Below are positions 2,274-32,066 of a stretch of 64,000 bases of DNA, in pieces; the stretch's first letter is position 1, and every line of letters begins with the position of its first letter. Source of the DNA: Candidatus Latescibacterota bacterium. Its GTDB lineage: Bacteria; Latescibacterota; UBA2968. Under the pieces are notes generated by a model. That model had not been told where the DNA came from and did not search any database. It saw only the letters and a list, made by a program, of their open reading frames with translations. The position numbers were made by a program, and so were the translations under genes. The stretch lies in the NCBI GenBank assembly GCA_965204745.1, contig OZ242010.1, forward strand, positions 1,888,001-1,952,000. The letters are read 5' to 3'.

Positions 2274-2384
2274 GCCAATTTCCTCCATGATATTTTGTTC
2301 ACTGCGCTTGTATCATAATACATTCATCGCTTGCTGTTCACAAGTTTCATTCCAATCGCCCCGTCCATTTCAGAGGCTTATGCC

Positions 2385-4823
2385 ATGGTTCTCACAGATG
2401 CCAGCGTTAGGCGGTCAGTCGCGGGAAAATGTCCCGTCCTGCTCGCTTGCTTACCGCTGCTCCTCGCGCTGTCAACGGTCTTTGTTTTTGGCCATGACCT
2501 GCGAAGCCACATAGAGCGTTCTTATAGTCACTCTGCCTTTACGCAGCATAAAATGACGATAGCCGCCAATCTGTCTTTGGATCACAACTTTCTGATGTTC
2601 TATGCCCAAACGCTCGAGGCAGATGGCACGGTTTCTTACGAACCGTATAATCGCCATCCCATAGGTGGTTATGTGCTCATCGTGCTGGCTATCCTGCCCT
2701 TTGGCGATGACTTGGCAGCCCAACTCTATGCGGCAAGGACGCTGATGTTGCTGTGCTTTGTTGCCACAGCACTGCTGGCGTATCTCTGCCTTTGCCGGCT
2801 GACACATCATCCATGGATCGCCGCAACCGCGACGCTCTTGGCATTTTCATCGTTCTATTGCTTGTTCTACAGCGATATGGTGGATAATGTATTGGGGATC
2901 GATCTGCTCGGGGTGATGCTGACTTTTCACGGGATGGTCATTTTCATTCGTGAGGGTCGCTTTCGGCAACTGCTGGTCAAGACGTGCATCGCGCTGTTTT
3001 TGGGCTGGCATGTCTATGCGTTGCTGTTGCCCTTTATCACACTCGGAGTGGCGCGAGAATGCCGAGGCAAGAGGCAAGAGGCAAGAGGCAAGAGGCAAGA
3101 GGCAAGAGGCAAGAGGCAAGAGGCGCGTTTAGCCCCTTGCAAGTTGAAATGCTACTTCCTGCTTCGCAGTCGCTATGTGTTGCTCGGCATTGTCGCATTG
3201 CTTTTGGGGTTGTCCTTGTTGACCTTTAATTTTGTCAATGAATACGTCGCGCTGAAAGGTGAGAAATCCCTGACGGAATTACCGTCTTTCCGGTCTATGA
3301 TATATCGCACGGGAATGGGTACCCAAGAAAATAGACCCCAGAACCCCTTGAAGTTGGGATTTTTCCTGCTAGGTCAATTTTCTCGCATTGGTGGGATGTC
3401 AACGCCGTATTTCATCCTGCCCTACCTCGGCGTGCCTAAGCCACCGAACTCTTACGTGCCGTTGTCCGTTGGTGTAGGCATTGGGGTGTTTGTTTCATGT
3501 CTGTTTGGGGTGTATTTCACGCGCCCGCGAATCCTTTGGGCGACCTTGGGTCTGTTTGGCTTCTGTTGGGCATTGCCCATGCGCCATCAAGTTAAACCGA
3601 ATGGGCATGAATTCGAGAGCGTATTTTACATCGGCCTGCCCCTGGTCTTCTTCTCGCTTATTCTGCTGTGCCTATCCCGCCGCTTCAAGACCCCGCCTTT
3701 GATGGTCGGCTTTGCGGGTGCTGCCCTGATCGTCTTTGTGCTTTCCAGTTTTCAGATGAGCCATTTCTATGCCCCCGATGCGACGCAACGCCAAAAGGTC
3801 GAACTGGCAGACGCGACAGCCATCCGCCGGTTAACGGCAGATGGCGACCTCATTTTTGTGCCGTTCTATGACTCACTTGATTCCATGCTATTATGGCAGA
3901 AGTTACGTTACTATTTGACGCGGAGGATCATTCATCCTCATTCTCTCACCGCAGAGGGCTTCACGGTGATGTTTGATCGCCTGGACACTGTACCCCCCTC
4001 GAGAGGGGCAAAACTTCCCGTGAAGACAGACGCGTTGCTCACGCCGAAAAACGAGCAGATATTCCTCTATGACTCCAAGAAATTGCTCGAGGAGTATCGG
4101 TATAAATATCAATGGGTCGTATCTGGCGAGTTGGTGGCGCGGTCAACCTTTGATGTGTATCGCGACGAGCATGTGTTGCATTACGTCAAAACGCCCTGTT
4201 CTGACGCGGACATGCAGACCGAATTCTTCTTGCACCTCTTTCCGGCAGACGAGAGATCTATTGCCTTCCACCGCAGGTGGCTTGGATATGACAACGAGGG
4301 CTTTAAGTTTTATGACCGCGGTTTGCGATTCGACGATAAATGCTTGGCGAGCATCGCGCTTCCGCACTACGATATCGCCCGGATTGAAACCGGGCCACTT
4401 CCCCCGGTCAAAGCAAGCAAAGAACGCGCTGATCATCCCGGGAGGCTCAAAGCGTATCGACAGGCATATCAACGGGCCGTGTCTGGTGAGCCTGTGGCGC
4501 GGTCAATTTTCGATGTGTATCGCGATGAGCGCACGTTGTATTACGTCAAAAGTCCCTGTTCTGATGCGGACGTGAAATTTCGATTCTTCTTACACCTCTT
4601 TCCCGCAGACGCGAAGGAGCTTCCCAGCCACCGCAGGCAGTATGGATATGACAACTACGACTTTGATTTTTCTTCGTACGGCCTGCGGTTCGATGACAAA
4701 TGCTTGGCGGGCATCGCGCTTCCGCACTATGCCATCGCTCGTATTGAAACGGGGCGGGTCCACTGGAACAGCGGCGGCAACCACTGGGAGGCTAAAATTT
4801 TTCTCGACGAACAGTCAAAGTAG
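2385..4823 (+). CDS. Array paralog 1: polytopic membrane (GT-C-like) protein with 2 C-terminal ~110-aa repeats and an in-frame heptamer insertion
   Basis: ATG at 2385 follows the same spacer-like sequence as the other copies. Many hydrophobic segments, then repeats VVSG.ARSTFDVYRDE..LYYVKSPC...FFLH.FP...RFDDKCLA.IALPHY.IARIETG. Function is inferred. Confidence 0.85.
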   Translation: MVLTDASVRRSVAGKCPVLLACLPLLLALSTVFVFGHDLRSHIERSYSHSAFTQHKMTIAANLSLDHNFLMFYAQTLEADGTVSYEPYNRHPIGGYVLIVLAILPFGDDLAAQLYAARTLMLLCFVATALLAYLCLCRLTHHPWIAATATLLAFSSFYCLFYSDMVDNVLGIDLLGVMLTFHGMVIFIREGRFRQLLVKTCIALFLGWHVYALLLPFITLGVARECRGKRQEARGKRQEARGKRQEARLAPCKLKCYFLLRSRYVLLGIVALLLGLSLLTFNFVNEYVALKGEKSLTELPSFRSMIYRTGMGTQENRPQNPLKLGFFLLGQFSRIGGMSTPYFILPYLGVPKPPNSYVPLSVGVGIGVFVSCLFGVYFTRPRILWATLGLFGFCWALPMRHQVKPNGHEFESVFYIGLPLVFFSLILLCLSRRFKTPPLMVGFAGAALIVFVLSSFQMSHFYAPDATQRQKVELADATAIRRLTADGDLIFVPFYDSLDSMLLWQKLRYYLTRRIIHPHSLTAEGFTVMFDRLDTVPPSRGAKLPVKTDALLTPKNEQIFLYDSKKLLEEYRYKYQWVVSGELVARSTFDVYRDEHVLHYVKTPCSDADMQTEFFLHLFPADERSIAFHRRWLGYDNEGFKFYDRGLRFDDKCLASIALPHYDIARIETGPLPPVKASKERADHPGRLKAYRQAYQRAVSGEPVARSIFDVYRDERTLYYVKSPCSDADVKFRFFLHLFPADAKELPSHRRQYGYDNYDFDFSSYGLRFDDKCLAGIALPHYAIARIETGRVHWNSGGNHWEAKIFLDEQSK
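3064..3124 (+). repeat. (GAGGCAA)8 tract inside paralog 1
   Basis: Eight perfect units plus a partial unit, translated as RGKRQEA repeats. Absent from the other 11 paralogs. Confidence 0.95.
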
Positions 4824-4852
4824 ATCCCCTATCCATTTCAGAGGCTTAGGCC

Positions 4853-7546
4853 ATGATTCTCATTCCATCGGAAGCAAGCGTTAGGCGGTCAGTGGTGGGC
4901 AAACGTCCCGTTTTGCTCGCATGCTTACCACTTCTCCTCGCGCTGTCAACGGTCTTTGTTTTTGGGCATGACCTGCGAAGTCACATAGAGCGTTCTCATA
5001 CTCACTCTATCCCTACGCATCATAGAATGGCGATAGCCGCCAATCTGTCTTTGGATCACAACTTCTTGCAGTTCTATCTCCAAACGCTCGAGGCAGATGG
5101 CACGGTTTCTTACGAACCGTATAATCGCTTTCCCATAGGTGGGCATGGGCTCATTGCGCTGGCTATCCTGCCCTTTGGCGATGACTTGGCAAGCCAACTC
5201 TATGCGGCCAGGACCCTGATGTTGCTGTGCTTTGTTGCCACAGCACTGCTGGCGTATCTCTGCCTTTGCCGGCTGACACATCATCCATGGATCGCCGCAA
5301 CCGCGACGCTCTTGGCGTTCTCATCGTTCTATTGCTTGTTCTATAGCGATATGGTGCATAATGAAGCGGGGATCGATCTGCTCGGGGTGATGCTGACCTT
5401 CCACGGGATGGTCATTTTCTTATGTGAGGGGCGTTTTCGGCAACTGCTGGTCAAGACGTGCATCGCGCTGTTTTTGGGCTGGCATGTCTATGCGTTGCTG
5501 TTGCCCTTTATCGCGCTCGGAGTGGTGCGCGAATGCCTCCACATGCGTTCAGTCCCTTTCAAGTTGAAGTGCTCCTGCCTGCTTCGCAGTCGCTATGTGT
5601 TGCTCGGCATTGTCGCATTGCTGTTTGGTTTGTCCTTATTGGCCTTTAATTTTGTCAATGAATACGTCGCGCTGAAAGGTGAGAAATCCCTGACGGAATT
5701 ACCGTCTTTCCGGTCTATGATATATCGCACGGGAATGGGTACCCCAGAAGATCGCCCTTCGCGCCCCTTGAAGTGGGATTCCTTCCTGCGAGGTCAATTC
5801 TCTCGCATTGGTGGGATGTCAACGCCGTATTTTATTTTTCCCTGCTTTGGCGTGCTTAGGCCACCGCAATCTTACGTGCCCTTGTCCGTTGGTGTGGGCA
5901 TTGGGGTGTCTATTGCGTGTCTGTTTGGGGTGTATTTCACGCGCCCGAGAATCCTTTGGGCGACCTTGATTCTGTTTGGCTTCTGTTGGACATTGCCCAT
6001 ACGCCATAACGTTAAAATGCTTGGCCATGAATTCGAGAGCGTGTTTTACATCGGCCTGCCCCTGGTCTTCTTCTCGCTTATTCTGCTGTGTCTATCCCGA
6101 CGCTTCAAGACCCCTCCCTTGATGGTCGGCTTTGCGGGTGTTGCGCTGATCATCTTTGTGCTTTCCAGTTTTCAGATGAGCCATTTCTATGCCCCCGATG
6201 CGACGCAACGCCAAAAGGTCGAGCTATCGGACATTGCAGCCATCCGCCGGTTAACGGCAGATGGCGACCTCATTTTTGTGCCGTTCTATGACCCACCTGA
6301 TTTAAATCGGACGTCGCGAGCTTACGAGAGGGCGAAGAGAAATTACTATTGGTCGCGGAGGATCATTCACACTCATTCTCTCCCCGCAGAGGGCTTCACG
6401 ATGATGTACGATCGTCTGGAGACAGACGCACTGCTCACGCCGAAAAACGAGCGGATATTTCTTTATGACTCCAAGAAATTGCTCAAAGCGTATCGGCAGG
6501 CAGTCGTGTCTGGCGAGCTCGTGGCGCGGTCAACCTTTGATGTGTATCGCGATGAGCGTGCGGTGCATTACGTCAAAAGTCCCTGTTCTGACGCGGACAT
6601 GCAGACCAAATTCTTCTTGCACATCTTTCCGACAGACGCGAGATCGATTCCCGTCCGCTGCAGGTGGCTTGGATATGACAACGAGGTCTTTAAGTTTCAG
6701 GATCGCGGTCTGCGGTTCGATGACAAATGCTTGGCGAGCATCGCGCTTCCGCACTACGATATCGCCCGGATTGAAACCGGGTCACTTTCCCGCGATTCCG
6801 ATCCAGAGCGGCTCGAGGTGTATCGGCAGGCATATCAGCGGGTCGTGTCTGGCGAGGTGGTGGCGCGGTCAACCTTCGATGTGTATCGCGATGAGCGCAC
6901 GTTGTATTACGTCAAAAGTCCCTGTTCTGATGCGGACGTGAAATTTCGATTCTTCTTGCACATCTTTCCCGCAGACGCGAAGGAGCTTCCCGTCCATCGC
7001 AGGCCGTATGGATATGACAACTACGACTTTGATTTTTCTTCGCAAGGTCAGCGGTTCGATGACAAATGCTTGGCGGGCATCGCGCTTCCGCATTACGATA
7101 TCGCCCGGATTGAAACCGGGCCACTTTCCCCCGGTCAAAGCAATGAACGCGCTGATGATCCCGGCAGGCTCGAGGTGTATCGGCAGGTTTATCAACGGGT
7201 CGTGTCTGGCGTGCCTGTGGCGCGGTCAATTTTCGATGTGTATCGCGATGAGCGCACATTGTATTACGTCAAAAGTCCCTGTTCTGATGCGGATGTGAAA
7301 TTACAATTCTTCTTACACCTCTTTCCGGCAGACGCGAAGGAGCTTCCCAGCCGTCGCTGGCAGTGGGGGTATAACAACGACAACTTTTCTTTTGTTGATC
7401 AAGGTCAGCGGTTCGATGACAAATGCTTGGCGAGCATCGCGCTTCCGCACTATGCCATCGCTCGTATTGAAACGGGTCAGTTCCATTGGAACAGCGGTGG
7501 CAAACACTGGGAGGCTAAAATTTTTTTCGACGAACAATCAAAGTAG
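4853..7546 (+). CDS. Array paralog 2 (3 C-terminal repeats)
   Basis: 897 aa ORF collinear with the other copies. Confidence 0.88.
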   Translation: MILIPSEASVRRSVVGKRPVLLACLPLLLALSTVFVFGHDLRSHIERSHTHSIPTHHRMAIAANLSLDHNFLQFYLQTLEADGTVSYEPYNRFPIGGHGLIALAILPFGDDLASQLYAARTLMLLCFVATALLAYLCLCRLTHHPWIAATATLLAFSSFYCLFYSDMVHNEAGIDLLGVMLTFHGMVIFLCEGRFRQLLVKTCIALFLGWHVYALLLPFIALGVVRECLHMRSVPFKLKCSCLLRSRYVLLGIVALLFGLSLLAFNFVNEYVALKGEKSLTELPSFRSMIYRTGMGTPEDRPSRPLKWDSFLRGQFSRIGGMSTPYFIFPCFGVLRPPQSYVPLSVGVGIGVSIACLFGVYFTRPRILWATLILFGFCWTLPIRHNVKMLGHEFESVFYIGLPLVFFSLILLCLSRRFKTPPLMVGFAGVALIIFVLSSFQMSHFYAPDATQRQKVELSDIAAIRRLTADGDLIFVPFYDPPDLNRTSRAYERAKRNYYWSRRIIHTHSLPAEGFTMMYDRLETDALLTPKNERIFLYDSKKLLKAYRQAVVSGELVARSTFDVYRDERAVHYVKSPCSDADMQTKFFLHIFPTDARSIPVRCRWLGYDNEVFKFQDRGLRFDDKCLASIALPHYDIARIETGSLSRDSDPERLEVYRQAYQRVVSGEVVARSTFDVYRDERTLYYVKSPCSDADVKFRFFLHIFPADAKELPVHRRPYGYDNYDFDFSSQGQRFDDKCLAGIALPHYDIARIETGPLSPGQSNERADDPGRLEVYRQVYQRVVSGVPVARSIFDVYRDERTLYYVKSPCSDADVKLQFFLHLFPADAKELPSRRWQWGYNNDNFSFVDQGQRFDDKCLASIALPHYAIARIETGQFHWNSGGKHWEAKIFFDEQSK

Positions 7547-7575
7547 ATCCCCTATCCATTTGGGAGGCTTAGGCC

Positions 7576-10281
7576 ATGATTCTCATTTTATCGGAGGCAA
7601 GCGTTAGGCGGTCAGTGGCGGGCAAATGTCCCGTTCTGCTCGCTTGCTTACCGCTGCTCCTCGCGCTGTCAACGGTCTTTGTTTTTGGGCATGACCTGCG
7701 AAGTCACATAGAGCGTTCTCATAGTCACTCTGTCCTTACGCATCATAGAATGTCGATAGCCGCCAATCTGTCTTTGGATCACAACTTCTTGCAGTTCTAT
7801 CTCCAAACGCTCGGGGCAGATGGCACGGTTTTTTACGACTGGCTGTACAATCGCTTTCCCATAGGTGGGCATGGGCTCATTGCGCTGGCTATCCTGCCCT
7901 TTGGCGATGACTTGGCAAGCCAACTCTATGCGGCCAGGACCCTGATGTTGCTGTGCTTTGTTGCCACAGCACTGCTGGCGTATCTCTGCCTTTGTCGGCT
8001 GACACATCATCCATGGATCGCCGCAACCGCGACGCTCTTGGCGTTCTCATCGTTCTATTGCTTGTACTACGCCGATATGGTCATGAATGAAACGGGGATC
8101 GACCTGCTTGGGGTAATGTTGACCTTTCACGGGATGGTCATTTTCTTATGTGAGGGTCGCTTTCGGCAACTGCTGGTCAAGACGTGCATCGCGCTGTTTT
8201 TGGGCTGGCATGTCTATGCGTTGCTGTTGCCCTTTATCGCGCTCGGATTGGTGCGCGAATGCCTCCACATGCGTTCAGCTCCTTTCAAACTGAAGTGCTC
8301 CCGCCTGCTTCGCAGTCGCTATGTGTTGCTCGGCATTGTCGCATTGCTTTTGGGGTTGTCCTTGTTGACCTTTAATTTTGTCAATGAGTACGTCGCGCTG
8401 AAAGGTGAGAAATCCCTGACGGAATTACCGTCTTTCCGGTCTATGATATATCGCATGGGAATAGGTACCCCAGAAAATCGCCCTTCGCGCCCCTTGAAGT
8501 GGGATTTCTTCCTGCTAGATCAATTCTCTCGCATTGGTGGGATGTCAACGCCGTATTTCATCCTGCCCTCTCTCGGCGCACTTAGGCCCCCAGAGTCTTA
8601 CGTGCCTTTGTCCGTTGGCGTGGGCATTGGGGTGTTTGTTGCGTGTCTGTTTGGGGTGTATTTCACGCGCCCGCGAATCCTTTGGGCGACCTTGGTTCTA
8701 TTTGGCTTCTGTTGGGCATTGCCCATGCGCTATAACGTTGAAGCACCTAACCATAGTTTCGAGAGCGTGTTTTACATCGGCCTGCCTCTGGTCTTCTTCT
8801 CGCTTATTCTGCTGTGCCTATCCCGCCGCTTCAAGACCCCGCTTTTGATGGTCGGCTTTGCGGGTGCTGCACTGATCATCTTTGTGCTTTCCAGTTTTCA
8901 GATGAGCCGCTTCTATGCCCCCGATGCGACGCAACGCCAAAAGGTCGAGCTATCGGACGTTACAGCCATCCGCCGGTTAACGGCAGATGGCGACCTCATT
9001 TTTATACCGTTCTCTGACCCACCTGATTTAAATCGGACGTCGCGACCTTACGAGAAGGCGAAGCAAAATTACTATTGGTCGCGGAGGATCATTCACTTTC
9101 ATTCTCTCCCCGCAGAGGGCTTCACAGTGATGTACGATCGCCTGGAGACAGACGCACTGCTCACGCCGAAAAACGATCGGATATTCCTTTATGACTCCAA
9201 GAAATTGCTCAAAGCGTATCGGCAGGCATATCAGCGGGTCGTGTCTGGCGAGTTCGTGGCGCGGTCAACCTTTGATGTTTATCGCGACGAGCATGCGTTG
9301 CATTACGTCAAAAGTCCCTGTTCTGATGCGGACATGCAGACCAAATTCTTCTTGCACCTCTTTCCGACAGACGCGAGATCGATTCCCGTCCGCCGCAGGT
9401 GGCTTGGATATAACGACAAAATTTTTAATTTTCAGGATCGCGGTCTGCGGTTCGATGACAAATGCTTGGCGAGCATCGCGCTTCCGCACTACGACATCGC
9501 CCGGATTGAAACCGGGTCACTTTCCCGCGATTCCGATCCAGAGCGGCTCGAGGTGTATCGGCAGGCATATCAGCGGGTCGTGTCTGGCGCGCCTGTGGCG
9601 CGGTCAATTTTCGATGTGTATCGCGATGAGCACATGTTGTATTACGTCAAAAGTCCCTGTTCTGATGCGGACGTAAAATTACGATTCTTCTTGCACATCT
9701 TTCCCTCAGACGCGAAGGAGCTTCCCGTCCACCGCAGGCAGTATGGATATGACAACTACGACTTTGATTTTTCTTTTCAAGGTCAGCGGTTCGATGACAA
9801 ATGCTTGGCGGGCATCGCGCTTCCGCCTTACGATATCGCCCGGATTGAAACCGGATCACTTTCCCCCGGTCAAAGCAAAGAACGCGCTGATGATCCCGGC
9901 AGGCTCGAGGTGTATCGGCAGGTATATCAGCGGGTCGTATCTGGCGCGCCTGTGGCGCGGTCAACCTTCGATGTGTATCGCGATGATCGCACGTTGTATT
10001 ACGTCAAAAGTCCCTGTTCTGATGCGGATGTGAAATTACAATTCTTCTTGCACATCTTTCCTGCAGACGCGAAGGAGCTTCCCAGCCGTCGCTGGCAGTG
10101 GGGGTATAACAACGACAACTTTTCTTTTGTTGATCAAGGTCAGCGGTTCGATGACAAATGCTTGGCGAGCATCGCGCTTCCGCACTATGCCATCGCTCGT
10201 ATTGAAACGGGTCAGTTCCATTGGAACAGCGGTGGCAAACACTGGGAGGCTAAAATTTTTTTCGACGAACAATCAAAGTAG
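7576..10281 (+). CDS. Array paralog 3 (3 C-terminal repeats)
   Basis: 901 aa ORF collinear with the other copies. Confidence 0.88.
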   Translation: MILILSEASVRRSVAGKCPVLLACLPLLLALSTVFVFGHDLRSHIERSHSHSVLTHHRMSIAANLSLDHNFLQFYLQTLGADGTVFYDWLYNRFPIGGHGLIALAILPFGDDLASQLYAARTLMLLCFVATALLAYLCLCRLTHHPWIAATATLLAFSSFYCLYYADMVMNETGIDLLGVMLTFHGMVIFLCEGRFRQLLVKTCIALFLGWHVYALLLPFIALGLVRECLHMRSAPFKLKCSRLLRSRYVLLGIVALLLGLSLLTFNFVNEYVALKGEKSLTELPSFRSMIYRMGIGTPENRPSRPLKWDFFLLDQFSRIGGMSTPYFILPSLGALRPPESYVPLSVGVGIGVFVACLFGVYFTRPRILWATLVLFGFCWALPMRYNVEAPNHSFESVFYIGLPLVFFSLILLCLSRRFKTPLLMVGFAGAALIIFVLSSFQMSRFYAPDATQRQKVELSDVTAIRRLTADGDLIFIPFSDPPDLNRTSRPYEKAKQNYYWSRRIIHFHSLPAEGFTVMYDRLETDALLTPKNDRIFLYDSKKLLKAYRQAYQRVVSGEFVARSTFDVYRDEHALHYVKSPCSDADMQTKFFLHLFPTDARSIPVRRRWLGYNDKIFNFQDRGLRFDDKCLASIALPHYDIARIETGSLSRDSDPERLEVYRQAYQRVVSGAPVARSIFDVYRDEHMLYYVKSPCSDADVKLRFFLHIFPSDAKELPVHRRQYGYDNYDFDFSFQGQRFDDKCLAGIALPPYDIARIETGSLSPGQSKERADDPGRLEVYRQVYQRVVSGAPVARSTFDVYRDDRTLYYVKSPCSDADVKLQFFLHIFPADAKELPSRRWQWGYNNDNFSFVDQGQRFDDKCLASIALPHYAIARIETGQFHWNSGGKHWEAKIFFDEQSK

Positions 10282-10310
10282 ATCCCCTATCCATTTGGGA
10301 GGCTTAGGCC

Positions 10311-12662: not shown

Positions 12663-12691
12663 ATCCCCTATCCATTTCAGAGGCTTAGGCC

Positions 12692-15031: not shown

Positions 15032-15060
15032 ATCCCCTATCCATTTCAGAGGCTTAGGCC

Positions 15061-17739: not shown

Positions 17740-17768
17740 ATCCCCTATCCATTTCAGAGGCTTAGGCC

Positions 17769-20072: not shown

Positions 20073-20137
20073 AGTAGGTGATACATCTGAGCGTTACGCA
20101 CAACTGCTCTTTCAAATCAACTTAGGAGGCTTAGGCC

Positions 20138-22468: not shown

Positions 22469-22497
22469 ATACCCTATCCATTTCAGAGACTTAGGCC

Positions 22498-24888
22498 ATG
22501 ATTCTCATTCCATCAGAGGCAAGCGTTAGGCGGTCAGTGGCGGGCAAACGTCCCGTCCTGCTCGCTTGCTTACCGCTTCTCCTCGCGCTGTCAACGGTCT
22601 TTGTTTTTGGGCATGACCTGCGAAGTCACATAGCGCGTTCTAAGAGTCACTCTTTCCATACGCATCATAAAATGGCGATATCAGCCAATCTGTCTTTGGA
22701 TCACCACTTTCTGATGTTCTATCGCCAAACGCTCAATGCCGATGGCGCGGTTTCTTACGTACCGAATAATCGCTTTCCCATAGGTGGGCATGTGCTCATC
22801 GCGCTGGCTATCCTGCCCTTTGGCGATGACTTGGCAACCCAACTCTATGCGGCAAGGACCCTGATGTTGCTGTGCTTTGCCGCCACAGCACTGCTGGCCT
22901 ATCTCTGCCTTTGCCGGCTGACACATCATCCCTGGATCGCCACAACCGCGACGCTCTTGGCGTTCTCATCGTTCTATTGCTTGTTCTACAGCGATATGGT
23001 GTTCAATGAAGCGGGGATCGATCTGCTCGGGGTGATGCTGACCTTTCACGGCATGGTCATTTTCATTTATGAGGGTCGTTTTCGGCAACTGCTGGTCAAG
23101 ACGTGCATCGCGCTGTTTTTGGGCTGGCATGTCTATGCGTTGCTGTTGCCCTTTATCGCGCTCGGAATGGTGCGGGAATGGTGCCGTGCGCGTTCAGTCC
23201 CTTTCAAGTTGAAATGCTCCCGCCTGCTTCGCAGTCGCTATGTGTTGCTCGGCATTGTCGCGTTGCTCGTTGGGTTGTCCTTATTGACCTTTAATTTTTT
23301 CATTGAATACGTCGCGCTGAAGGGTGAGAAATCCCTGACGGAATTACCGTCTTTCCAGTCTATGATCTATCGCACGGGAATAGGTACCCCAGAAAATCGC
23401 TCCTCGCACCCCTTGAAGTGGGATTCCTTCCTGCGAGGTCAATGCTCTCGTATCGGTGGGATGTTCACGCCGTATTTCATCCTGCCCTCCCTCAATGCAC
23501 TTCTCCCGGAGTTTTATGTGCCCTTGTCCGTTGGCGTGGGCATTGGGGGGGTTATTTTGTGTCTGTCTGGGGTGTATTTCACGCGCCCAAGAATCCTTTG
23601 GGCGACCTTGATTCTGGTTGGCTTCTGTTGGGCATTGCCCATGCGCCATAATGTTAAAGAGCTTTCCCATAGCTTCGAGAGCGTGTTTTACATCGGCCTG
23701 CCTCTGGTCTTCTTCGCACTTGTTCTGCTGTGCCTATCCCGTCGCTTCAAGACCCCTCTTTTGATGGTCGGCTTTGCGGGTGCTGCCCTGATCGTCTTTG
23801 TGCTTTCCAGTCTTCAGATGAGCCATTTCTATGACCCCGATGCGACGCAACGCCAAAAGGTCGAGCTATCGGACGCGACAGCCATCCGCCGGTTAACGGC
23901 AGAGGACGACCTCATTTTTATCTCGCCCCATCCACATTTAAATTGGCCGGACTTTGGGGGCCTACGTTACGGGACAAGAATAGATTACTATTTGGCGCAG
24001 AGGATCATTCACTCTCATTCTCTCACCGCAGAGGGCTTCACGGTGAGGTATGATCGCCCTCTCACCGCAGAGGGCTTCACGGTGATAAATGATCGCCTGG
24101 AGACAGACGCGCTGCTCACGCCGAAAAACGAGCGGATATTCCTCTATGACTCCAAGAAATTGCTCAAAGCGTATCGGCAGGCAGTCGTGTCTGGCGAGTT
24201 AGTGGCGCGATCAACCTTTGATGTGTATCGCGACGAGCGTGCGTTGCATTACGTCAAAACGCCCTGTTCTGATGAGGACTTGAAGACCAAATTCTTCTTG
24301 CACATCTTTCCGACCAACAGGAAGGAACTGGACTCTCATCGCTTGCTGTGGGGGTATAACAACTACTCCTTTTCTTTTGATAAGCAAGGCCTGCGGTTCG
24401 ATGACAAATGCTTGGTGAGCATCGCGCTTCCGCATTACGATATCGCCCGTGTTGAAACAGGTCCACTTTCCTCCGACCAAAGCAAAGAACGCGCTAATGA
24501 CCCCGACAGGCTCGAGGTGTATCGGCAAGCATATCAACGGGTCATGTCTGGCGAGTTAGTGACGCGATCAACTTTCGACGTATATCGCGTATCGCGGGCA
24601 TTGTATTACGTCAAAAGTCCCTGTTCTGATGCGGACGTAAAGACCAAATTCTTCTTGCACATCTTTCCGACCAACAGGAAGGAACTGGACTCCTTGCGCT
24701 GGCAGTGGGGGTATAACAACTACGACTTTTTTTTTGATAAGCAAGGCCTGCGGTTCGATGACAAATGCTTGGCGAGCATCGCGCTTCCGCACTATGCCAT
24801 CGCCCGGATTGAAACGGGTCAGTTCTACTTTGATAGTAGAGGCAAACAATGGAAGGCAAAAATTTTTCTCAACGAGCAGGCAAAGTAG
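22498..24888 (+). CDS. Array paralog 9 (2 C-terminal repeats)
   Basis: 796 aa ORF with an internal 39-bp duplication. Confidence 0.88.
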   Translation: MILIPSEASVRRSVAGKRPVLLACLPLLLALSTVFVFGHDLRSHIARSKSHSFHTHHKMAISANLSLDHHFLMFYRQTLNADGAVSYVPNNRFPIGGHVLIALAILPFGDDLATQLYAARTLMLLCFAATALLAYLCLCRLTHHPWIATTATLLAFSSFYCLFYSDMVFNEAGIDLLGVMLTFHGMVIFIYEGRFRQLLVKTCIALFLGWHVYALLLPFIALGMVREWCRARSVPFKLKCSRLLRSRYVLLGIVALLVGLSLLTFNFFIEYVALKGEKSLTELPSFQSMIYRTGIGTPENRSSHPLKWDSFLRGQCSRIGGMFTPYFILPSLNALLPEFYVPLSVGVGIGGVILCLSGVYFTRPRILWATLILVGFCWALPMRHNVKELSHSFESVFYIGLPLVFFALVLLCLSRRFKTPLLMVGFAGAALIVFVLSSLQMSHFYDPDATQRQKVELSDATAIRRLTAEDDLIFISPHPHLNWPDFGGLRYGTRIDYYLAQRIIHSHSLTAEGFTVRYDRPLTAEGFTVINDRLETDALLTPKNERIFLYDSKKLLKAYRQAVVSGELVARSTFDVYRDERALHYVKTPCSDEDLKTKFFLHIFPTNRKELDSHRLLWGYNNYSFSFDKQGLRFDDKCLVSIALPHYDIARVETGPLSSDQSKERANDPDRLEVYRQAYQRVMSGELVTRSTFDVYRVSRALYYVKSPCSDADVKTKFFLHIFPTNRKELDSLRWQWGYNNYDFFFDKQGLRFDDKCLASIALPHYAIARIETGQFYFDSRGKQWKAKIFLNEQAK

Positions 24889-24917
24889 ATACCATATCGT
24901 TTTAGGAGGCTTAGGCC

Positions 24918-27209
24918 ATGGTTCTAACAGATGCCAGCGTTAGGCGGTCAGTCGCGGGCAAACGTCCCGTTCTGCTCGCTTGCTTACCGTTGCTCCTCGC
25001 GCTGTCAACGGTCTTTATTTTTTGCCACGACCTGCGAAGCCACTGTGTACGTTCTTATAGTCACTCTGTCCTTACGCATCATAAAATGGCGATAGCCGCC
25101 AATCTGTCTTTGGATCACCACTTCCTGATGTTCTATCGCCAAACGCTCAATGCCGATGGCGCGGTTTCTTACGAACTGTATAATCGCTTTCCCATAGGTG
25201 GGTATGTGCTCATCGCGCTGGCTATCCTGCCCTTTGGCGATGACTTGGCAACCCAACTCTATGCGGCAAGGACCCTGATGTTGCTGTGCTTTGTTGCAAC
25301 AGCACTGCTGGCCTATCTCTGCCTTTGCCGGCTGACACATCATCCCTGGATCGCCGCAACCGCGACGCTCTTGGCGTTCTCATCATTCTATTGCTTGTTC
25401 TACAGCGATATGGTGCATAATGAAACGGGGATCGACCTGCTCGGGGTGATGCTGACTTTTCACGGGATGGTCATTTTCTTATGTGAGGGTCGTTTTCGGC
25501 AACTGCTGGTCAAGATGTGCATCGCGCTGTTTTTGGGCTGGCATGTCTATGCGTTGCTGTTGCCCTTTATCGCGCTCGGATTGGTGCGAGAATGCCGTCG
25601 TGCGCGTTCAGTCCCTTTCAAGTTGAAGTGCTCCCGCCTACTTCGCAGTCGCTATGTGTTGCTCGGCATTGTCGCGTTGCTCGTTGGGTTGTCCTTGTTG
25701 ACCTTTAATTTTGTCAATGAATACGTCGCGCTGAAAGGTGAGAAATCCCTGACGGAATTACCGTCTTTCCAGTCTATGATGTATCGCACGGGAATAGATA
25801 CCCCATGGTATAGACTACAGAACCCCTTGAGGTGGGATTCCTTTCTGCTGGGTCAATTCTCTCGCATTGGTGGGATGTTCACGCCGTATTTTATTTTCCC
25901 CTACCTTAGCGCACTTCCCCCGGAGTTTTATGTGCCCTTGTCTGTTGGCGCGGGCATTGGGGTGTTTGTTTTTTATCTATTTGGGGTATATTTCACGCGC
26001 CCGAGAATCCTTTGGGCGACCTTGGGTCTGGTTGGCTTCTGTTGGGCATTGCCCATGCGCCATAATGTTAAAGAGCTTTCCCATAGCTTCGAGAGCGTGT
26101 TTTACATCGGCCTGCCTCTGGTCTTCTTCTCGCTTCTTCTGCTGTGCCTATCCCGCCGCTTCAAGGCCCCTCCTTTAATGGTCGGCTTTGCGGGTGTTGC
26201 CCTGATCGTCTTTGTGCTTTCCAGTTTTCAGATGAGCCACTTCTATGACCTCGATGCGACGCAACGCCAAAAGGTCGAACTGTCCGACGTTACAGCCATC
26301 CGCCGGTTAACGGCAGAGGACGACCTCATTTTTCTACCGTTCTATAGCTCATCTGATTTAAATCCGCCGAAGCTACATTACTATTTGGCGCGGAGGATCA
26401 TTCACGCTCATTCTCTCACCGCAGAGGGCTTCACGCTGATGGATGATCGCCTGGAGACAGACGCGTTGCTCACGCCGAAAAACGAGCGGATATTTCTTTA
26501 TGACTCCAAGAAATTGCTCAAAGCGTATCGGCAGGCAGTCGTGTCTGGCGAGTTGGTGGCGCGGTCAACCTTTGATGTGTATCGGGATGAGCGCACGTTG
26601 CATTACGTCAAAAGTCCCTGTTCTGACGCGGACATGAAGACCAAATTCTTCTTGTACATCTTTCCGACAGATGAGAGATCTATTCCCTTTGGATATGACA
26701 ACGAAGTCTTTAAGTTTCAGGATCGCGGTTTGCGCTTCGACGATAAATGCTTGGCGAGCGTCGCGCTTCCGAACTACGATATCGCCCGGATTGAAACCGG
26801 GCCACTTTCCCCGGCCCAAAGCAAAGAACGCGGAAGGCGCGAGGTGTATCGGCAATATCAACGGGTCGTGTCTGGCGAGTTGGTGGCGCGGTCAACCTTC
26901 GATGTGTATCGCGACGAGCGTGTGTTGCATTACGTCAAAACGCCCTGTTTTGATGAAGACATAAAAACCAAATTCTTCTTGCACATCTTTCCGACCGACA
27001 GAAAGGAACTGCCCTCCCATCGCTGGCTGTGGGGGTATGACAACGACGACTTTTCTTGGCGTAAGCGAGGCCTGCGGTTCGATGACAAATGCTTGGCGAG
27101 CATCGCGCTTCCACACTACGACATCGCCCGGATTAAAACGGGTCAGTTCTACGATGATGGGGTTAGAGTGTGGGAGGTAGAAATTTCTCTCAACGAGCAG
27201 TCAAAGTAG
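24918..27209 (+). CDS. Array paralog 10 (2 C-terminal repeats)
   Basis: 763 aa ORF. MVLTDAS start shared with paralog 1. Confidence 0.88.
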   Translation: MVLTDASVRRSVAGKRPVLLACLPLLLALSTVFIFCHDLRSHCVRSYSHSVLTHHKMAIAANLSLDHHFLMFYRQTLNADGAVSYELYNRFPIGGYVLIALAILPFGDDLATQLYAARTLMLLCFVATALLAYLCLCRLTHHPWIAATATLLAFSSFYCLFYSDMVHNETGIDLLGVMLTFHGMVIFLCEGRFRQLLVKMCIALFLGWHVYALLLPFIALGLVRECRRARSVPFKLKCSRLLRSRYVLLGIVALLVGLSLLTFNFVNEYVALKGEKSLTELPSFQSMMYRTGIDTPWYRLQNPLRWDSFLLGQFSRIGGMFTPYFIFPYLSALPPEFYVPLSVGAGIGVFVFYLFGVYFTRPRILWATLGLVGFCWALPMRHNVKELSHSFESVFYIGLPLVFFSLLLLCLSRRFKAPPLMVGFAGVALIVFVLSSFQMSHFYDLDATQRQKVELSDVTAIRRLTAEDDLIFLPFYSSSDLNPPKLHYYLARRIIHAHSLTAEGFTLMDDRLETDALLTPKNERIFLYDSKKLLKAYRQAVVSGELVARSTFDVYRDERTLHYVKSPCSDADMKTKFFLYIFPTDERSIPFGYDNEVFKFQDRGLRFDDKCLASVALPNYDIARIETGPLSPAQSKERGRREVYRQYQRVVSGELVARSTFDVYRDERVLHYVKTPCFDEDIKTKFFLHIFPTDRKELPSHRWLWGYDNDDFSWRKRGLRFDDKCLASIALPHYDIARIKTGQFYDDGVRVWEVEISLNEQSK

Positions 27210-27238
27210 ATCCCCTATCCATTTGGGAGGCTTAGGCC

Positions 27239-29560
27239 ATGATTCTCATTCCATCAGAGGCAAGCGTTAGGCGGTCAGTCGCGGGAAAATGTCCCGTTCT
27301 GCTCGCATGCTTACCGCTACTCCTCGCGCTGTCAACGGTCTTTGTTTTTGGGCATGACCTGCGAAGTCACATAGAGCGTTCTCCTGGTTACTCTAACCTT
27401 ACGCATCATAAAATGTCGATAGCCGCCAACCTTTCTCCAGATCACAACTTTCTGATGTTCTATCGCCAAACGCTCAATGCCGATGGCGCGGTTTATTACG
27501 AAATGTATAATCGCCATCCCATAGGTGAGTTTGTGCTCATTGCGCTGGCTATCCTGCCCTTTGGCGATGACTTGGCAAGCCAACTCTATGCGGCAAGGAC
27601 CCTGATGTTGCTGTGCTTTGTTGCAACAGCACTGCTGGCGTATCTCTGCCTTTGCCGGCTAATACATCATCCCTGGATCGCCGCAACCGCGACGCTCTTG
27701 GCGTTCTCATCGTTCCATTGCTTGTTCTACAGCGATATGGTGTTCAATGATACGTGGATCGACCTGCTTGGGGTAATGCTGACTTTTCACGGGATGATCA
27801 TTTTCTTCTGTGAGGGTCGCTTTCGGCAACTGCTGGTCAAGACGTGCATCGCGCTGTTTTTGGGCTGGCATGTCTATGCGCTGCTGTTGTCCTTTATCGC
27901 GCTCGGAGTGGTGCGGGAATGCCGCCGTGCGCGTTCAGTCCCTTTCAAGTTGAAGTGCTCCCGCCTGCTTCGCAGTCGCTATGTGTTGCTCGGCATTGTC
28001 GCATTGCTGTTTGGGTTGTCCTTGTTGACCTTTAATTTCGCTAATGAATACGTCGCGCTGAAAGGTGAGAAATCCCTGACGGAATTACCGTCTTTCCAGT
28101 CTATGACGTATCGCACGGGAATAGACCCAGGAAATAGACCAGGTCGCCCCTTGAGGTGGAATTCCTTTCTGCGAGATCAATTCTCTCGCATTGGTGGGGT
28201 GTCAACGCCGTATTTTATTTTTTTCTATCTTAGCGCACTTCCCCCGCAGTCTTACGTGCCCTTGTCCGTTGGTGTGGGCATTGGGGTGTCTATTGCGTGT
28301 CTGGTGGGGGTGTATTTCACGCGCCCGAGAATCCTTTGGGCGCCCTTGATTCTGCTTGGCTTCTGTTGGGCATTGCCCATGCGCTATCAAGTTAAAACGC
28401 CTGGTCATGCTTATGAGAGCATGTTTTACATCGGCCTGCCACTGGTCTTCTTCTCGCTTATTCTGCTGTGCCTATCCCGACGCTTCAATGCCCCGCTTTT
28501 GATGGTCGGCTTTGCGGGTATTGCCCTGATCGTCTTTGTGCTTTCCAGTTTTCAGATGAGCCATTTCTATGCCCCCGATGCGACGCAACGCCAAAAGGCT
28601 GAGTTGGCAGACGCGACAGCCATCCGCCGGTTAACGGCAGAGGACGACCTCATTTTCTTTACCCCTGGTTTCAATCTGGCGAAGCTACGTTACTATTTGG
28701 CGCGGAGGATCATTCACTCTCATTCTCTCACCGCAGAGGGCTTCACGCTGATGGATGATCGCCTGGAGACAGACGCGTTGCTCACGCCGAAAAACGAGCG
28801 GATATTCCTTTATGACTCCAAGAAATTGCTCAAAGCGTATCGGCAGGCAGGCGTGTCTGGCGAGGTGGTGGCGCGGTCAACCTTCGATGTATATCGCGAT
28901 GAGCACACGTTGTATTACGTCAAAAGTCCCTGTTCTGACGCGGACATGCAGACCGAATTCTTCTTGCACATCTTTCCGACAGACACGCAGGAACTGCTCT
29001 CTCATCGCTGGCAGTGGGGGTATGACAACGACGACTTTTCTTTTCATACGCGAGGCCTGCGGTTCGATGACAAATGCTTGGCGAGCATCGCGCTTCCACA
29101 CTACGACATCGCCCGGATTGAAACCGGGCCACTTTCCCCCGGCCAAAGCAATGAACGCACTGATGATCCCGGGATGCTCAAAGCGCATCGGCAGGTATAT
29201 CAACGGGTCGTGTCTGGCGCGCCTGTGGCGCGGTCAACTTTCGATGTGTATCGCGATGATCGCACGTTGTATTACGTCAAAAGTCCCTGTTCTGATGCGG
29301 ACGTGAAATTACGATTCTTCTTACACCTCTTTCCCGCAGACGCGAAGGAGCTTCTCAGCGGCTTTCACCGCTGGCAGTATGGATATAACAACGACGACTT
29401 TAATTTTTCTGATCAGGGCCTGCGGTTCGATGACAAATGCTTGGCGAGCGTCGCGCTTCCGCACTACGACATCGCTCGTATTGAAACGGGTCAGTTCCAC
29501 TGGAACAGCGGTAGCAAACAATGGAAGGCTAAAATTTTTCTTGACGAACAGTCAAAGTAG
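27239..29560 (+). CDS. Array paralog 11 (2 C-terminal repeats)
   Basis: 773 aa ORF collinear with the other copies. Confidence 0.88.
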   Translation: MILIPSEASVRRSVAGKCPVLLACLPLLLALSTVFVFGHDLRSHIERSPGYSNLTHHKMSIAANLSPDHNFLMFYRQTLNADGAVYYEMYNRHPIGEFVLIALAILPFGDDLASQLYAARTLMLLCFVATALLAYLCLCRLIHHPWIAATATLLAFSSFHCLFYSDMVFNDTWIDLLGVMLTFHGMIIFFCEGRFRQLLVKTCIALFLGWHVYALLLSFIALGVVRECRRARSVPFKLKCSRLLRSRYVLLGIVALLFGLSLLTFNFANEYVALKGEKSLTELPSFQSMTYRTGIDPGNRPGRPLRWNSFLRDQFSRIGGVSTPYFIFFYLSALPPQSYVPLSVGVGIGVSIACLVGVYFTRPRILWAPLILLGFCWALPMRYQVKTPGHAYESMFYIGLPLVFFSLILLCLSRRFNAPLLMVGFAGIALIVFVLSSFQMSHFYAPDATQRQKAELADATAIRRLTAEDDLIFFTPGFNLAKLRYYLARRIIHSHSLTAEGFTLMDDRLETDALLTPKNERIFLYDSKKLLKAYRQAGVSGEVVARSTFDVYRDEHTLYYVKSPCSDADMQTEFFLHIFPTDTQELLSHRWQWGYDNDDFSFHTRGLRFDDKCLASIALPHYDIARIETGPLSPGQSNERTDDPGMLKAHRQVYQRVVSGAPVARSTFDVYRDDRTLYYVKSPCSDADVKLRFFLHLFPADAKELLSGFHRWQYGYNNDDFNFSDQGLRFDDKCLASVALPHYDIARIETGQFHWNSGSKQWKAKIFLDEQSK

Positions 29561-29589
29561 ATACCTTATCCATTTCAGAGGCTTAGGCC

Positions 29590-31929
29590 ATGATTCTCAT
29601 TCCATCGGATGCCGGGGTTAGGCGGTCAGTGGCGGGAAAACGTCCCGTTCTGCTCGCTTGCTTGCCGCTTCTCCTCGCGCTTTCAACGGTCTTTGTTTTT
29701 GGCCATGACCTGCGAAGTCACCTTGTGCGTTCTGTGGGTCACTCTGACTTTACGTATCATAAAATGGCGATAGCCGCCAACCTTTCTCCAGATCACCACT
29801 TTCTGATGTTCTATCGCCAAACGCTCAATGCCGATGGCGCGGTTTCTTACGTACCGAATAATCGCTTTCCCATAGGTGGGCATGTGCTCATCGCGCTGGC
29901 TATCCTGCCCTTTGGCGATGACTTGGCAACCCAACTCTATGCGGCAAGGACCCTGATGTTGCTGTGCTTTGCCGCCACAGCACTGCTGGCGTATCTCTGC
30001 CTTTGCCGGCTGACACATCATCCCTGGATCGCCGCAACCGCGACGCTCTTGGCGTTCTCATCGTTCTATTGCTTGTTCTTCAGCGATATGGTGTTCAATG
30101 AAACGGGGATCGATCTGCTCGGCGTGATGCTGACTTTTCACGGGATGGTCATTTTCATTTTTGAGGGTCGCTTTCGGCAACTGCTGGTCAAGATGTGCGT
30201 CGCGCTGTTTTTGGGCTGGCATGTCTATGCGTTGCTGTTGCCCTTTATCGCGCTCGGAGTGGTGCGGGAATGTTGCCGTGCGCGTTCAGTCCCTTTCAAG
30301 TTGAAATGCTCCCGCCTGCTTCGCAGTCGCTATGTGTTGCTCGGCATTGTCGCGTTGCTCGTTGGGTTGTCCTTATTGACCTTTAATTTTGTCAATGAAT
30401 ACGTCGCGCTGAAAGGTGAAAAATCACTGACGGAATTACCGTCTTTCCGGTCTATGATATATCGCACGGGAATGGGTACCCCAGAAAATCGCCCCTTGAA
30501 CTCCTTGAAGTGGGATTTCTTCCTGATAGAACAATTCTTTCGTATTGATTTGATGTGCATGCCGCAATTCATCCTGTCCTGCCTCGATGCACTTCCCCGG
30601 AGTTATTATGTGCCCTTGTCTGTTGGCGCGGGCATTGGGGTGTCTATTGCGTGTCTGTTTGGGGTGTATTTCACGCGCCCGAGAATCCTTTGGGCGACCT
30701 TGGTTCTGTTCGGCTTCTGTTGGGCATTGCCCATGCGCCATAACGTTAAAGTGTATGCCCATGACTTCGAGAGCGTGTTTTACATCGGTCTGCCCCTGGT
30801 CTTCTTCTCGCTAATTCTGCTGTGCCTATCCCGCCGCTTCAAGACCGCGCCTTTGATGGTCGGCTTTGCGGGTATTGCGCTGATCGTCTTTGTGCTTTCC
30901 AGTTTTCAGATGAGCCATTTCTATGCCCTCGATGCGACGCAACGCCAAAAGGTCGAGCTATCGGACATTGTAGCCATCCGCCGGTTAACGACAGAGAACG
31001 ACCTCATTTTTATTTTTTTTAACTCGTCCAACCTCTACATCGAGACAAATCGGATAAGATACTATCTGAACCGGAGAATTATTCACGCTCATGCTCTCAC
31101 CGCAGAGGGCTTCACAGTGATGTTTGATCGCCTGGAGACAGACGCGTTGCTCACGCCGAAAAACGAGCGGATATTCCTTTATGACTCCAAGAAATTGCTC
31201 GAGGAGTATCGGCAGGTATATCAACGGGTCGTGTCTGGCGAGTTGGTGGCGCGCTCGACCTTCGATGTGTATCGCGATGAGCGTGCATTGCATTACGTCA
31301 AAAGTCCCTGTTCTGATGCGGACATGCAGACCAAATTCTTCTTCCACATCTTTCCGGCAGACGAGAGATCTATTCCCTTCCACCGCAGGTGGTTTGGATA
31401 TGATACCGCCGTCTTTGCGTTTTGGAAACACGGTTTGCAATTCGACGATAAATGCTTGGCGAGTATCGCGCTTCCACACTACGATATCGCCCGGATTGAA
31501 ACCGGGCCACTTTCCCCCGGCCAAAGCAATGAACGCGCTTATGATCCCGACAGGCTCGAGGTGTATCGGCAGGCATATCGACAGGTCGTGTCTGGCGAGT
31601 TGGTGGCGCGGTCAACCTTTGATGTGTATCGCGACGAGCGTGTGTTGCATTACGTCAAAACGCCCTGTTCTGACGCGGACGTGAAGACCAGATTCTTCTT
31701 GCACATCTTCCCGACTAACAGGAAGGAACCATCCTCCCTGTACTATCGGTGGAGGTATGAAAACATCGACTTTGATTTTTCTTCGTACGGCCTGCGGTTC
31801 GATGGCAAATGCTTGGCGAGCATCGCGCTTCCGCACTACGACATCGCCCGGATTAAAACGGGTCAGTTCTACGACGATGGGGTTAGAGTGTGGGAGGCAG
31901 AAATTTTTCTCAACGAGCAGTCAAAGTAG
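29590..31929 (+). CDS. Array paralog 12 (2 C-terminal repeats)
   Basis: 779 aa ORF collinear with the other copies. Confidence 0.88.
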   Translation: MILIPSDAGVRRSVAGKRPVLLACLPLLLALSTVFVFGHDLRSHLVRSVGHSDFTYHKMAIAANLSPDHHFLMFYRQTLNADGAVSYVPNNRFPIGGHVLIALAILPFGDDLATQLYAARTLMLLCFAATALLAYLCLCRLTHHPWIAATATLLAFSSFYCLFFSDMVFNETGIDLLGVMLTFHGMVIFIFEGRFRQLLVKMCVALFLGWHVYALLLPFIALGVVRECCRARSVPFKLKCSRLLRSRYVLLGIVALLVGLSLLTFNFVNEYVALKGEKSLTELPSFRSMIYRTGMGTPENRPLNSLKWDFFLIEQFFRIDLMCMPQFILSCLDALPRSYYVPLSVGAGIGVSIACLFGVYFTRPRILWATLVLFGFCWALPMRHNVKVYAHDFESVFYIGLPLVFFSLILLCLSRRFKTAPLMVGFAGIALIVFVLSSFQMSHFYALDATQRQKVELSDIVAIRRLTTENDLIFIFFNSSNLYIETNRIRYYLNRRIIHAHALTAEGFTVMFDRLETDALLTPKNERIFLYDSKKLLEEYRQVYQRVVSGELVARSTFDVYRDERALHYVKSPCSDADMQTKFFFHIFPADERSIPFHRRWFGYDTAVFAFWKHGLQFDDKCLASIALPHYDIARIETGPLSPGQSNERAYDPDRLEVYRQAYRQVVSGELVARSTFDVYRDERVLHYVKTPCSDADVKTRFFLHIFPTNRKEPSSLYYRWRYENIDFDFSSYGLRFDGKCLASIALPHYDIARIKTGQFYDDGVRVWEAEIFLNEQSK

Positions 31930-32066
31930 GTGATACATCTAAGCGTTACGCCACAACCGCTCTTTCAAATCAACGAGTATCTCATCAAATCTCGCATCTT
32001 CTCAATCCCTTTGCATACGACAAGTGCGATCATCTGCCGTAATCCTTTTCACCCATCGAGGTTTCC

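Follow-up and report, generated by a model that had tools for sequence, protein, structure and literature searches.

A tandem array of 12 intact paralogous genes, g01 to g12, occupies positions 2331–31929 of the forward strand in a 64,000-nucleotide stretch of the genome of a Candidatus Latescibacterota bacterium (contig OZ242010.1). The stretch, called the window here and used for all coordinates unless another source is named, corresponds to positions 1,888,001–1,952,000 of a single 5.48-Mb contig. The open reading frames (ORFs) encode membrane proteins of 763–901 aa with 77–83% identity to the first copy, and the copies differ chiefly in a few short loops. We propose, with a probability that we put at roughly 0.55, that these are 12 GT-C-like enzymes with different acceptor (or sugar) specificities, which would diversify the glycans or glycoproteins of the cell envelope in this sponge-associated bacterium. 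The loops that vary between the copies are predicted to correspond to loops that line the substrate pockets of GT-C glycosyltransferases, and we therefore read the array as a specificity panel, a reading that comes from sequence comparison and predicted topology.

Each paralog begins with a hydrophobic membrane domain of ~440 aa, followed by a variable linker and by two or three repeats of ~119 aa (357 nt), each of which has two conserved Cys residues. The repeats are predicted to lie outside the cell, and a Pfam scan of the repeat domain gave no match. Ten of the 11 intergenic spacers are a conserved 29 nt that carry a GGAG-like ribosome-binding site (for example 4824–4852, forward strand), and the 12 paralogs are apparently read as one operon. 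Residues are numbered here after g07, and columns refer to the alignment of the 12 proteins, A1.

A Pfam and NCBIfam scan of the window copies found no model at threshold, and the source records, including those of eight relatives, give the protein no name. A family profile built from 229 sequences of the membrane domain was aligned by hhalign with a PMT_2 profile built from related genomes, giving a score of 40.1 and a probability of 28% over g07 residues 115–229; reversed profiles scored 19.1 and 17.7, and the best of 20 block shuffles 26.1. When 70 family representatives were searched at E ≤ 0.1, PMT was matched by 11 (best 2e-6), PMT_2 by three and Glyco_transf_22 by three, other families being singletons. 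Sub-threshold matches with known coordinates share one region (residues 119–226 of protein P0189 and 126–249 of P0151), and 20 members scanned singly for the coordinates of PMT matches yielded one PMT_2 match only. In one relative a GT87-like domain is fused to the N-terminus. Because three weak signals agree, the PMT_2 profile score, the recurrent PMT, PMT_2 and Glyco_transf_22 matches and the GT87-like fusion, all being GT-C families, we think that the membrane domain is probably a highly diverged member of the GT-C glycosyltransferases, of the PMT/ArnT kind. A literature search found no description of the family or of such arrays. If our reading is right, the family is an undescribed branch of the GT-C glycosyltransferases that has no Pfam or NCBIfam model and carries a new outer repeat domain.

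Like the Wzy/O-antigen ligases (Wzy_C) and the SEDS polymerases, which are envelope-glycan enzymes, the family is polytopic with outer loops and has great sequence diversity. Unlike for PMT_2, the alignments with Wzy_C (score 17.7, probability 0.2%) and SEDS (20.9, 0.4%) were no better than those with shuffled controls, and an identity as Wzy_C or O-antigen ligase was rejected on this result. A lone weak Wzy_C_2 match (E = 0.052) occurs in one window copy.

Hydropathy identifies 11 hydrophobic segments in the membrane domain, and the N-terminus is basic. Segment 95–113 is weakly hydrophobic (mean 0.95). Family-wide, loops 140–146, 191–203, 223–249, 363–366 and 417–423 are basic and loop 166–171 is acidic, a charge bias that fits the topology we prefer. 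In this model transmembrane segment (TM) 1 spans residues 20–38, the first extracytoplasmic loop (EL1) 39–120, with Arg92 before a loop helix, TM2 121–139, TM3 147–165, EL2 166–171, TM4 172–190, a tight TM5/6 hairpin ~194–227, TM7 250–268, EL4 269–343, TM8 344–362, TM9 367–385, EL5 386–397, TM10 398–416 and TM11 424–442, with the linker and the repeats outside. In the GT-C/PMT clan, as section 7 of PMC7801869 describes it, a long EL1 contains helices, a short EL2 holds an acceptor-binding Asp, EL3 is short, a long EL4 between TM7 and TM8 contains a helix and a short EL5 holds a phosphate-binding Arg; EL1 and EL4 contribute to both the acceptor and the donor site, and EL2 to the acceptor site. 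If 95–113 is a loop helix and 194–227 a hairpin, the predicted succession of long, short, short, long and short loops fits the one described there.

The family would then resemble the PMT/ArnT clan (ArnT, PMT, TMTC) in having a polytopic domain whose N-terminus is inside, and a C-terminal domain that is soluble and outside. Measured against that section, the likeness would extend to the outer loops: the first is long and has conserved acidic and basic residues, the one that follows the next TM pair is short and acidic, another long one precedes TM8, and a short one carries an invariant Arg; the weak but specific profile similarity over residues 115–229 is a further likeness. Asp40, at least 90% conserved family-wide, lies in the loop 39–94 (or 39–120) after TM1, and the short loop 386–397 opens with Arg386, which is invariant. 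In the register of the PMT_2 profile the conserved PMT_2 Asp falls on Glu171. Invariant Asp, Arg, His and Glu residues are predicted to stand at the membrane edge of outer loops, as they do in the GT-C active sites described in that section. Unlike the PMT/ArnT clan, members of the family fall below every Pfam gathering score; they do not have the canonical DE/DD pair right after the first loop helix (instead, one Asp immediately follows TM1 and a DD pair stands close to residue 110), their C-terminal repeats match no known family, and their arrays reach 14 copies.

A preliminary description of the window held that the 12 paralogs differ chiefly in six short loops, V1–V6, and the alignment bears this out; every example string that it quoted is found in A1. 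In g07 (forward strand throughout), V1 comprises residues 45–56 (17901–17936), which follow closely on the conserved Asp in the first outer loop, and V2 residues 88–90 (18030–18038) of the same loop, directly before an invariant N-R-x-P motif. V3 is residue 169 of the short acidic loop 166–171 (18264–18281). V4, residues 295–313 (18651–18707), lies within the long loop 269–343, V5, residues 387–393 (18927–18947), in the short outer loop after Arg386, and V6, residues 478–494 (19200–19250), in the linker after the last TM. The 12 copies carry 11, 9, 6, 12, 11 and 12 distinct variants of V1 to V6 respectively. V4 and V6 are length-variable and differ in character from the other loops, being indel-rich and having raised synonymous change as well. 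Columns 351–380 form a further variable stretch, which the preliminary description did not list.

Around these loops the family-invariant residues are all retained in 12 of 12 copies. The TM segments had also been described as nearly invariant at the DNA level, which they are not: pairs of copies have a mean synonymous difference of 0.165 over the membrane domain, and copies differ by 7–13% of nucleotides in a star-like pattern. In conserved 10-codon windows of the membrane domain synonymous difference (pS) is 0.06–0.33 and nonsynonymous difference (pN) near 0. The conserved core, with synonymous change and pN near 0, is therefore kept by purifying selection and not by DNA identity.

Recombination between the copies is extensive. 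The nearest neighbour of each copy shifts between successive 60-codon windows, the observed value of the pairwise homoplasy index (PHI) test was reached in none of 1000 permutations, and pairwise site incompatibility plateaus within 30–100 nt. Loop variants are common to different pairs of copies, V5 to g09 and g10, V2 to g09 and g12, and V1 to g03 and g07. The copies are fine-grained mosaics made by short-tract gene conversion; any single tree is therefore wrong, and we counted changes without one. Synonymous (S) and nonsynonymous (N) changes were taken per codon column from a minimal spanning tree of the observed codons, with ties resolved conservatively, against nonsynonymous change; a path-averaged variant was also computed, and all selection tests were our own implementations.

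By this count the ratio of nonsynonymous to synonymous change, omega (dN/dS), is 0.69 over the membrane domain (S 237, N 403) and 0.54 over its part outside the loops. It is 2.85 in V1 (S 4, N 31, P = 0.024), 1.23 in V2, 1.11 in V3, 1.46 in V5, 0.92 in V4 and 0.68 in V6. Pooling of the point-variable loops V1, V2, V3 and V5 gives 1.90, with a bootstrap confidence interval (CI) of 1.2–3.7. Synonymous counts are uneven along the gene (chi-square 62, 25 degrees of freedom). Under a uniform synonymous rate, a Poisson mixture is improved by adding a class with omega > 1 (likelihood ratio test, LRT, 41.3; 12.7% of codons at omega 2.5), and mixtures with local synonymous rates give LRT values of 8.2–19.0 (P = 0.017 to 7.6e-5). 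With local rates the codons that stand out are columns 49 and 53 in V1, which are the strongest, 170 in V3, 413 in V5 and 324 in V4. At the leading codons positions 1 and 2 vary, and third positions and flanking codons are fixed. Hot positions that recur in other arrays, one from Latescibacterota and one from Nitrospirales, are 46, 49, 50, 88, 169, 391–395 and 486. A comparison of site models M2a and M1a over six segment trees returned an LRT of 167.5 and 28 sites, a value inflated by recombination; dimorphic columns (94, 115 and 410) also score as selected, and we did not rely on tree-based site models. We conclude that a handful of codons look positively selected and that the loops as a whole are near neutral. 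The diversifying selection claimed for the loops is supported for a few codons and for V1, V2, V3 and V5 together; for V4 and V6 it fails by the refuting condition given in the preliminary description, a dN/dS of 1 or less.

The preliminary description suggested that the variable sites could line one extracytoplasmic face, and the predicted topology agrees, placing five or six of the six loops outside. The top sites are outside in nine of nine cases under the GT-C-like model and in eight of nine under a plain 11-TM model. The corresponding figures are 43 and 42 of 50 for candidate sites (odds ratio about 8) and 22 and 21 of 22 for columns with at least five different residues, none of which lies in a TM segment. 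Predicted cytoplasmic loops have omega 0.52–0.63 and contain none or one of these 22 columns. By analogy, the variable loops would be those that build the substrate sites of solved GT-C enzymes, as these are set out in section 7 of PMC7801869.

Nine copies have orthologues at 92–99.7% identity in other assemblies. The loops, which make up 13% of columns, account for 39 of the 188 orthologue differences in the membrane domain, and three orthologue pairs, with 11, 12 and 1 differences in that domain, have none of these in the loops. The sole RVT_1 match in the genome is at 5,010,819 (5.01 Mb) of the contig, ~3 Mb from the array. With the loops mostly stable between orthologues and the lone reverse transcriptase so far off, the variety of the loops is therefore old and stably inherited and does not arise by hypermutation. 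The likeness to antibody complementarity-determining regions that had been drawn for the loops holds as an analogy only, the loops being stably inherited.

Several results weigh against the proposed specificity panel. On the side of enzyme identity, a first scan of 16 members, three window copies among them, gave no match to a GT-C family in any of the 16 and none at threshold; in a second set of 60 members only three matched (PMT_2 two, Glyco_transf_22 one). No member has a Pfam match at gathering score, the GT-C signals being all sub-threshold, and the hhalign probability stands at 28%. A sequence-profile search of the PDB had no GT-C chain among its matches, its only find being compositional, over 85 residues of an RND transporter (E about 1e-4). 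The preferred topology requires that 95–113 be a loop helix and 194–227 a tight hairpin; the plain 11-TM model puts V3, and V3 only, on the cytoplasmic side. Clustering of 366 neighbour ORFs around 61 family loci revealed no conserved neighbour gene: the commonest neighbour, an ABC ATPase, occurs in 6 of 61 loci, and a gene for donor synthesis is not a conserved neighbour either, a GT2 gene being present in 3 of 61; the neighbourhoods are uninformative. The proteins could instead be surface receptors, sensors, transporters or immunity-type proteins whose loops and repeats serve to bind a range of external ligands, for instance host molecules or phage. The failure of every family model to reach threshold would suit this, as would predicted outward loops together with an outward repeat domain, and the link of the family to a habitat across phyla. 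We nevertheless consider it quite improbable, given that GT-C transferases are the sole recurrent remote similarities, that invariant Asp, Arg, His and Glu residues are predicted where the outer loops meet the membrane, an arrangement that GT-C active sites have, and that one relative has the N-terminal GT87-like domain.

On the side of selection, V4 and V6 pooled have an omega of 0.78 (0.61–1.01) by the conservative count and 1.16 path-averaged, and all six loops pooled have 1.01 and 1.35 respectively. Synonymous change is about threefold above average around V4 and V6, which may be older than the homogenized core, or not reliably alignable, rather than positively selected. With local synonymous rates the selected class shrinks to only 1–8% of codons, and in two other arrays pooled loop omega is 0.95 and 1.09, the rest of the domain being at 0.51 and 0.56. 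V1–V6 were moreover picked for their variability, which pushes their omega up. As a control for this circularity, variable positions were defined from three unrelated Dehalococcoidia arrays; the top 5% of these (24 positions, 18 of them within V1–V6) have an omega of 1.42 (CI 0.97–2.45) in this array. Loops under relaxed constraint might simply tolerate change and drift while gene conversion homogenizes the alignable core, with no adaptive diversification. To the near-neutral pooled values in the three arrays and the dS raised along with dN in V4 and V6 are added the variation of the same loops family-wide and the rather high omega of the conserved part itself. We regard this as a serious alternative that is somewhat unlikely to be the whole explanation: the CI for V1, V2, V3 and V5 excludes 1, codon columns 49, 53, 54 and 170 have five to seven amino-acid changes beside invariant codons and third positions, the mixture LRT is significant even with local synonymous rates, predicted cytoplasmic loops are not hypervariable, and all 12 copies are intact with loops conserved between orthologues. 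There is a very slight chance that the variation is programmed, the loops being rewritten by a diversity-generating retroelement (DGR), or silent cassettes feeding one expression site as in pilin variation. The variable codons of V1 do change at positions 1 and 2 with position 3 fixed, gene conversion among the copies is frequent and g01 contains a 7-nt repeat of a type that gives rise to phase variation. A DGR target was rejected, however, with the only reverse transcriptase gene ~3 Mb away, no template repeat seen and the loops largely identical between orthologues; silent-cassette variation of the pilE/pilS type was rejected because all 12 copies are full-length ORFs, each with its own start codon and ribosome-binding-site spacer, and not promoterless fragments.

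In a specificity panel of GT-C-like enzymes the membrane domain would, by analogy with characterized GT-C enzymes, use a sugar carried on polyprenyl phosphate as donor and attach it to an acceptor at the outer side of the membrane. Purifying selection holds the TM core and the invariant polar residues in all copies, and the differences lie at V1 and V2 in the first long outer loop, V3 in the acidic loop after TM3, V4 before TM8, V5 in the short loop after TM9 and V6 in the linker after the last TM. On the topological model the outward variable loops may take part in acceptor or donor pockets, so that each paralog would glycosylate a different acceptor or use a different sugar and thereby widen the range of envelope glycans. 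The old inherited variety is reshuffled among the copies by short-tract gene conversion, with apparent positive selection at a few codons and near-neutral change in the remaining loop sequence. If the proposal is true, the array is a natural experiment on the way in which loop sequence determines the substrates of GT-C enzymes.

Adjacent GT-C paralogs with outer C-terminal domains and differing acceptor or donor preferences occur in mycobacterial EmbC–EmbA–EmbB and in the STT3 arrays of trypanosomatids, which comprise three to four copies with known substrates. The arrays of this family differ in having 12–14 copies and mosaic gene conversion between them. With the pilE/pilS and vls families and with DGRs the array shares a conserved framework around short variable segments, the exchange here being recombinational. 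Unlike in those systems, the copies are complete and apparently co-transcribed, silent cassettes are absent and the loops are stable between strains; and unlike in DGRs no reverse transcriptase or template lies near the array.

The family comprises 818 clusters at 50% identity among 1.84 billion protein representatives. In species-representative genomes we kept 61 loci, with 145 family ORFs, from Latescibacterota, Dehalococcoidia and other Chloroflexota, Nitrospirales, Gammaproteobacteria, Binatia and Acidimicrobiales. Tandem arrays are common, and each of three Dehalococcoidia genomes has 13–14 copies. The distribution is patchy: 3 of 53 genomes of the window's own order, all of one genus, have the family. 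The genome studied here holds exactly 13 copies, the 12 of the array and one at 3.935 Mb that is 89% identical in the membrane domain to g12, its nearest array copy; an hmmsearch of the whole genome with the family profile found nothing beyond these 13, the next match being at E = 1.5.

A tree built from 62 membrane domains intermingles the phyla, with 13 label changes against a minimum of five, and the clade of the window is sister to a 15-copy Dehalococcoidia clade. One well-supported clade with short branches of 0.11–0.23 unites sequences from Latescibacteria, Gammaproteobacteria and Nitrospirales (loci L029, L044, L048, L034, L035 and L051), with a Dehalococcoidia pair as its sister; its fork has a support of 90, and the larger clades that enclose it are on starred branches. 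The pattern points to transfer between phyla, and the short branches suggest that some of it was recent, with paralogy or binning errors as alternatives. Runs labelled sponge metagenome, from two studies, contain 31–40% of the sampled words. Two such runs cover 30 of 30 bins with many records at least 99% alike, these records being short contigs that map across paralogs and say nothing on variants or array rearrangements. No RNA run was listed among those that contain such words.

The family has expanded to long tandem arrays in bacteria that are unrelated but live in a common habitat, and its spread across phyla makes it a marker of gene exchange within the sponge-associated community. A wider scenario, which we offer as speculation and consider unlikely in its full extent, is a horizontally shared, habitat-specific diversification of cell coats: sponge-associated bacteria of at least six phyla would maintain arrays of up to 14 divergent GT-C enzymes, with substrate-binding loops reshuffled as modules by short-tract gene conversion, and their combinatorial glycosylation would vary the symbiont surface against host phagocytes or phage. 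The array is, if our proposal is true, a testable candidate for surface-glycan variation in sponge symbionts.

All 12 genes are on the forward strand. The ORF of g01 (2331–4823) opens at a TTG at 2331, and its likely start is the ATG at 2382, as in g10. It is followed by g02 (4853–7546, 897 aa), g03 (7576–10281, 901 aa), g04 (10311–12662, 783 aa), g05 (12692–15031, 779 aa), g06 (15061–17739, 892 aa), g07 (17769–20072, 767 aa), g08 (20138–22468, 776 aa), g09 (22498–24888, 796 aa), g10 (24918–27209, 763 aa), g11 (27239–29560, 773 aa) and g12 (29590–31929, 779 aa). Three C-terminal repeats are present in g02, g03 and g06, and the C-terminus of g07 is shortened and divergent (soluble region of ~119-aa repeats at 19326–20069). 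The 65-nt spacer 3′ of g07 (20073–20137, forward strand) is similar to DNA directly 3′ of the array (31930–31975). With this spacer and the g07 C-terminus, the array resembles two sub-arrays, g01–g07 and g08–g12, joined together. In g09 the linker after V6 is 13 residues longer through a 39-nt direct duplication (24020–24097).

In all copies, variation within the soluble domain is greatest at columns 667–673 and 902–908, which are homologous sites of the first and the last repeat, in the turn after a G-Y-D/N motif; over the soluble domain as a whole the mixture test was not significant (LRT 3.7, P = 0.16). The same Cys repeat module occurs outside the window on other, unrelated-looking polytopic membrane proteins of this genome (L092 973–4293, L085 1495–3105 and L093 1729–3843, all on the reverse strand in locus numbering), one of which also has fn3 domains. 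A weak match to DUF2142, of the GT-C clan (E = 0.059), came from a translation of the L092 protein that was truncated, and was gone at E ≤ 0.1 with the full-length protein; a search for DUF2142 in 31 related genomes found none.

Sulfatase, GH2 and phosphodiesterase genes are the neighbours of the array. Three sulfatase genes (861–2288, reverse; 32067–33512, forward; 40868–42289, reverse) and a GH2 glycosidase gene (33916–35703, forward) lie around it and fit a degrader of sulfated glycans. An AAA_21/AAA_15 ATPase gene of the AbiEii-like kind (43253–44362, forward) is possibly a defence gene. The G + C content is 0.51–0.53 over the array (2001–32000) and 0.58–0.61 in the flanks, and the AT skew of the array is strongly negative; both are consistent with a foreign origin and with the T-rich codons of membrane proteins. 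A perfect 7-nt repeat in g01 (3064–3124, forward strand, 8.7 copies) encodes an insert of three times seven residues in a loop that is basic and predicted to be cytoplasmic. Since the period of the repeat is not divisible by three, one unit more or less would shift the frame, and by analogy it would be a classic signature of a phase-variable gene. The g01 orthologue in another assembly, P0019, is seven residues shorter exactly at the repeat, which equals three units.

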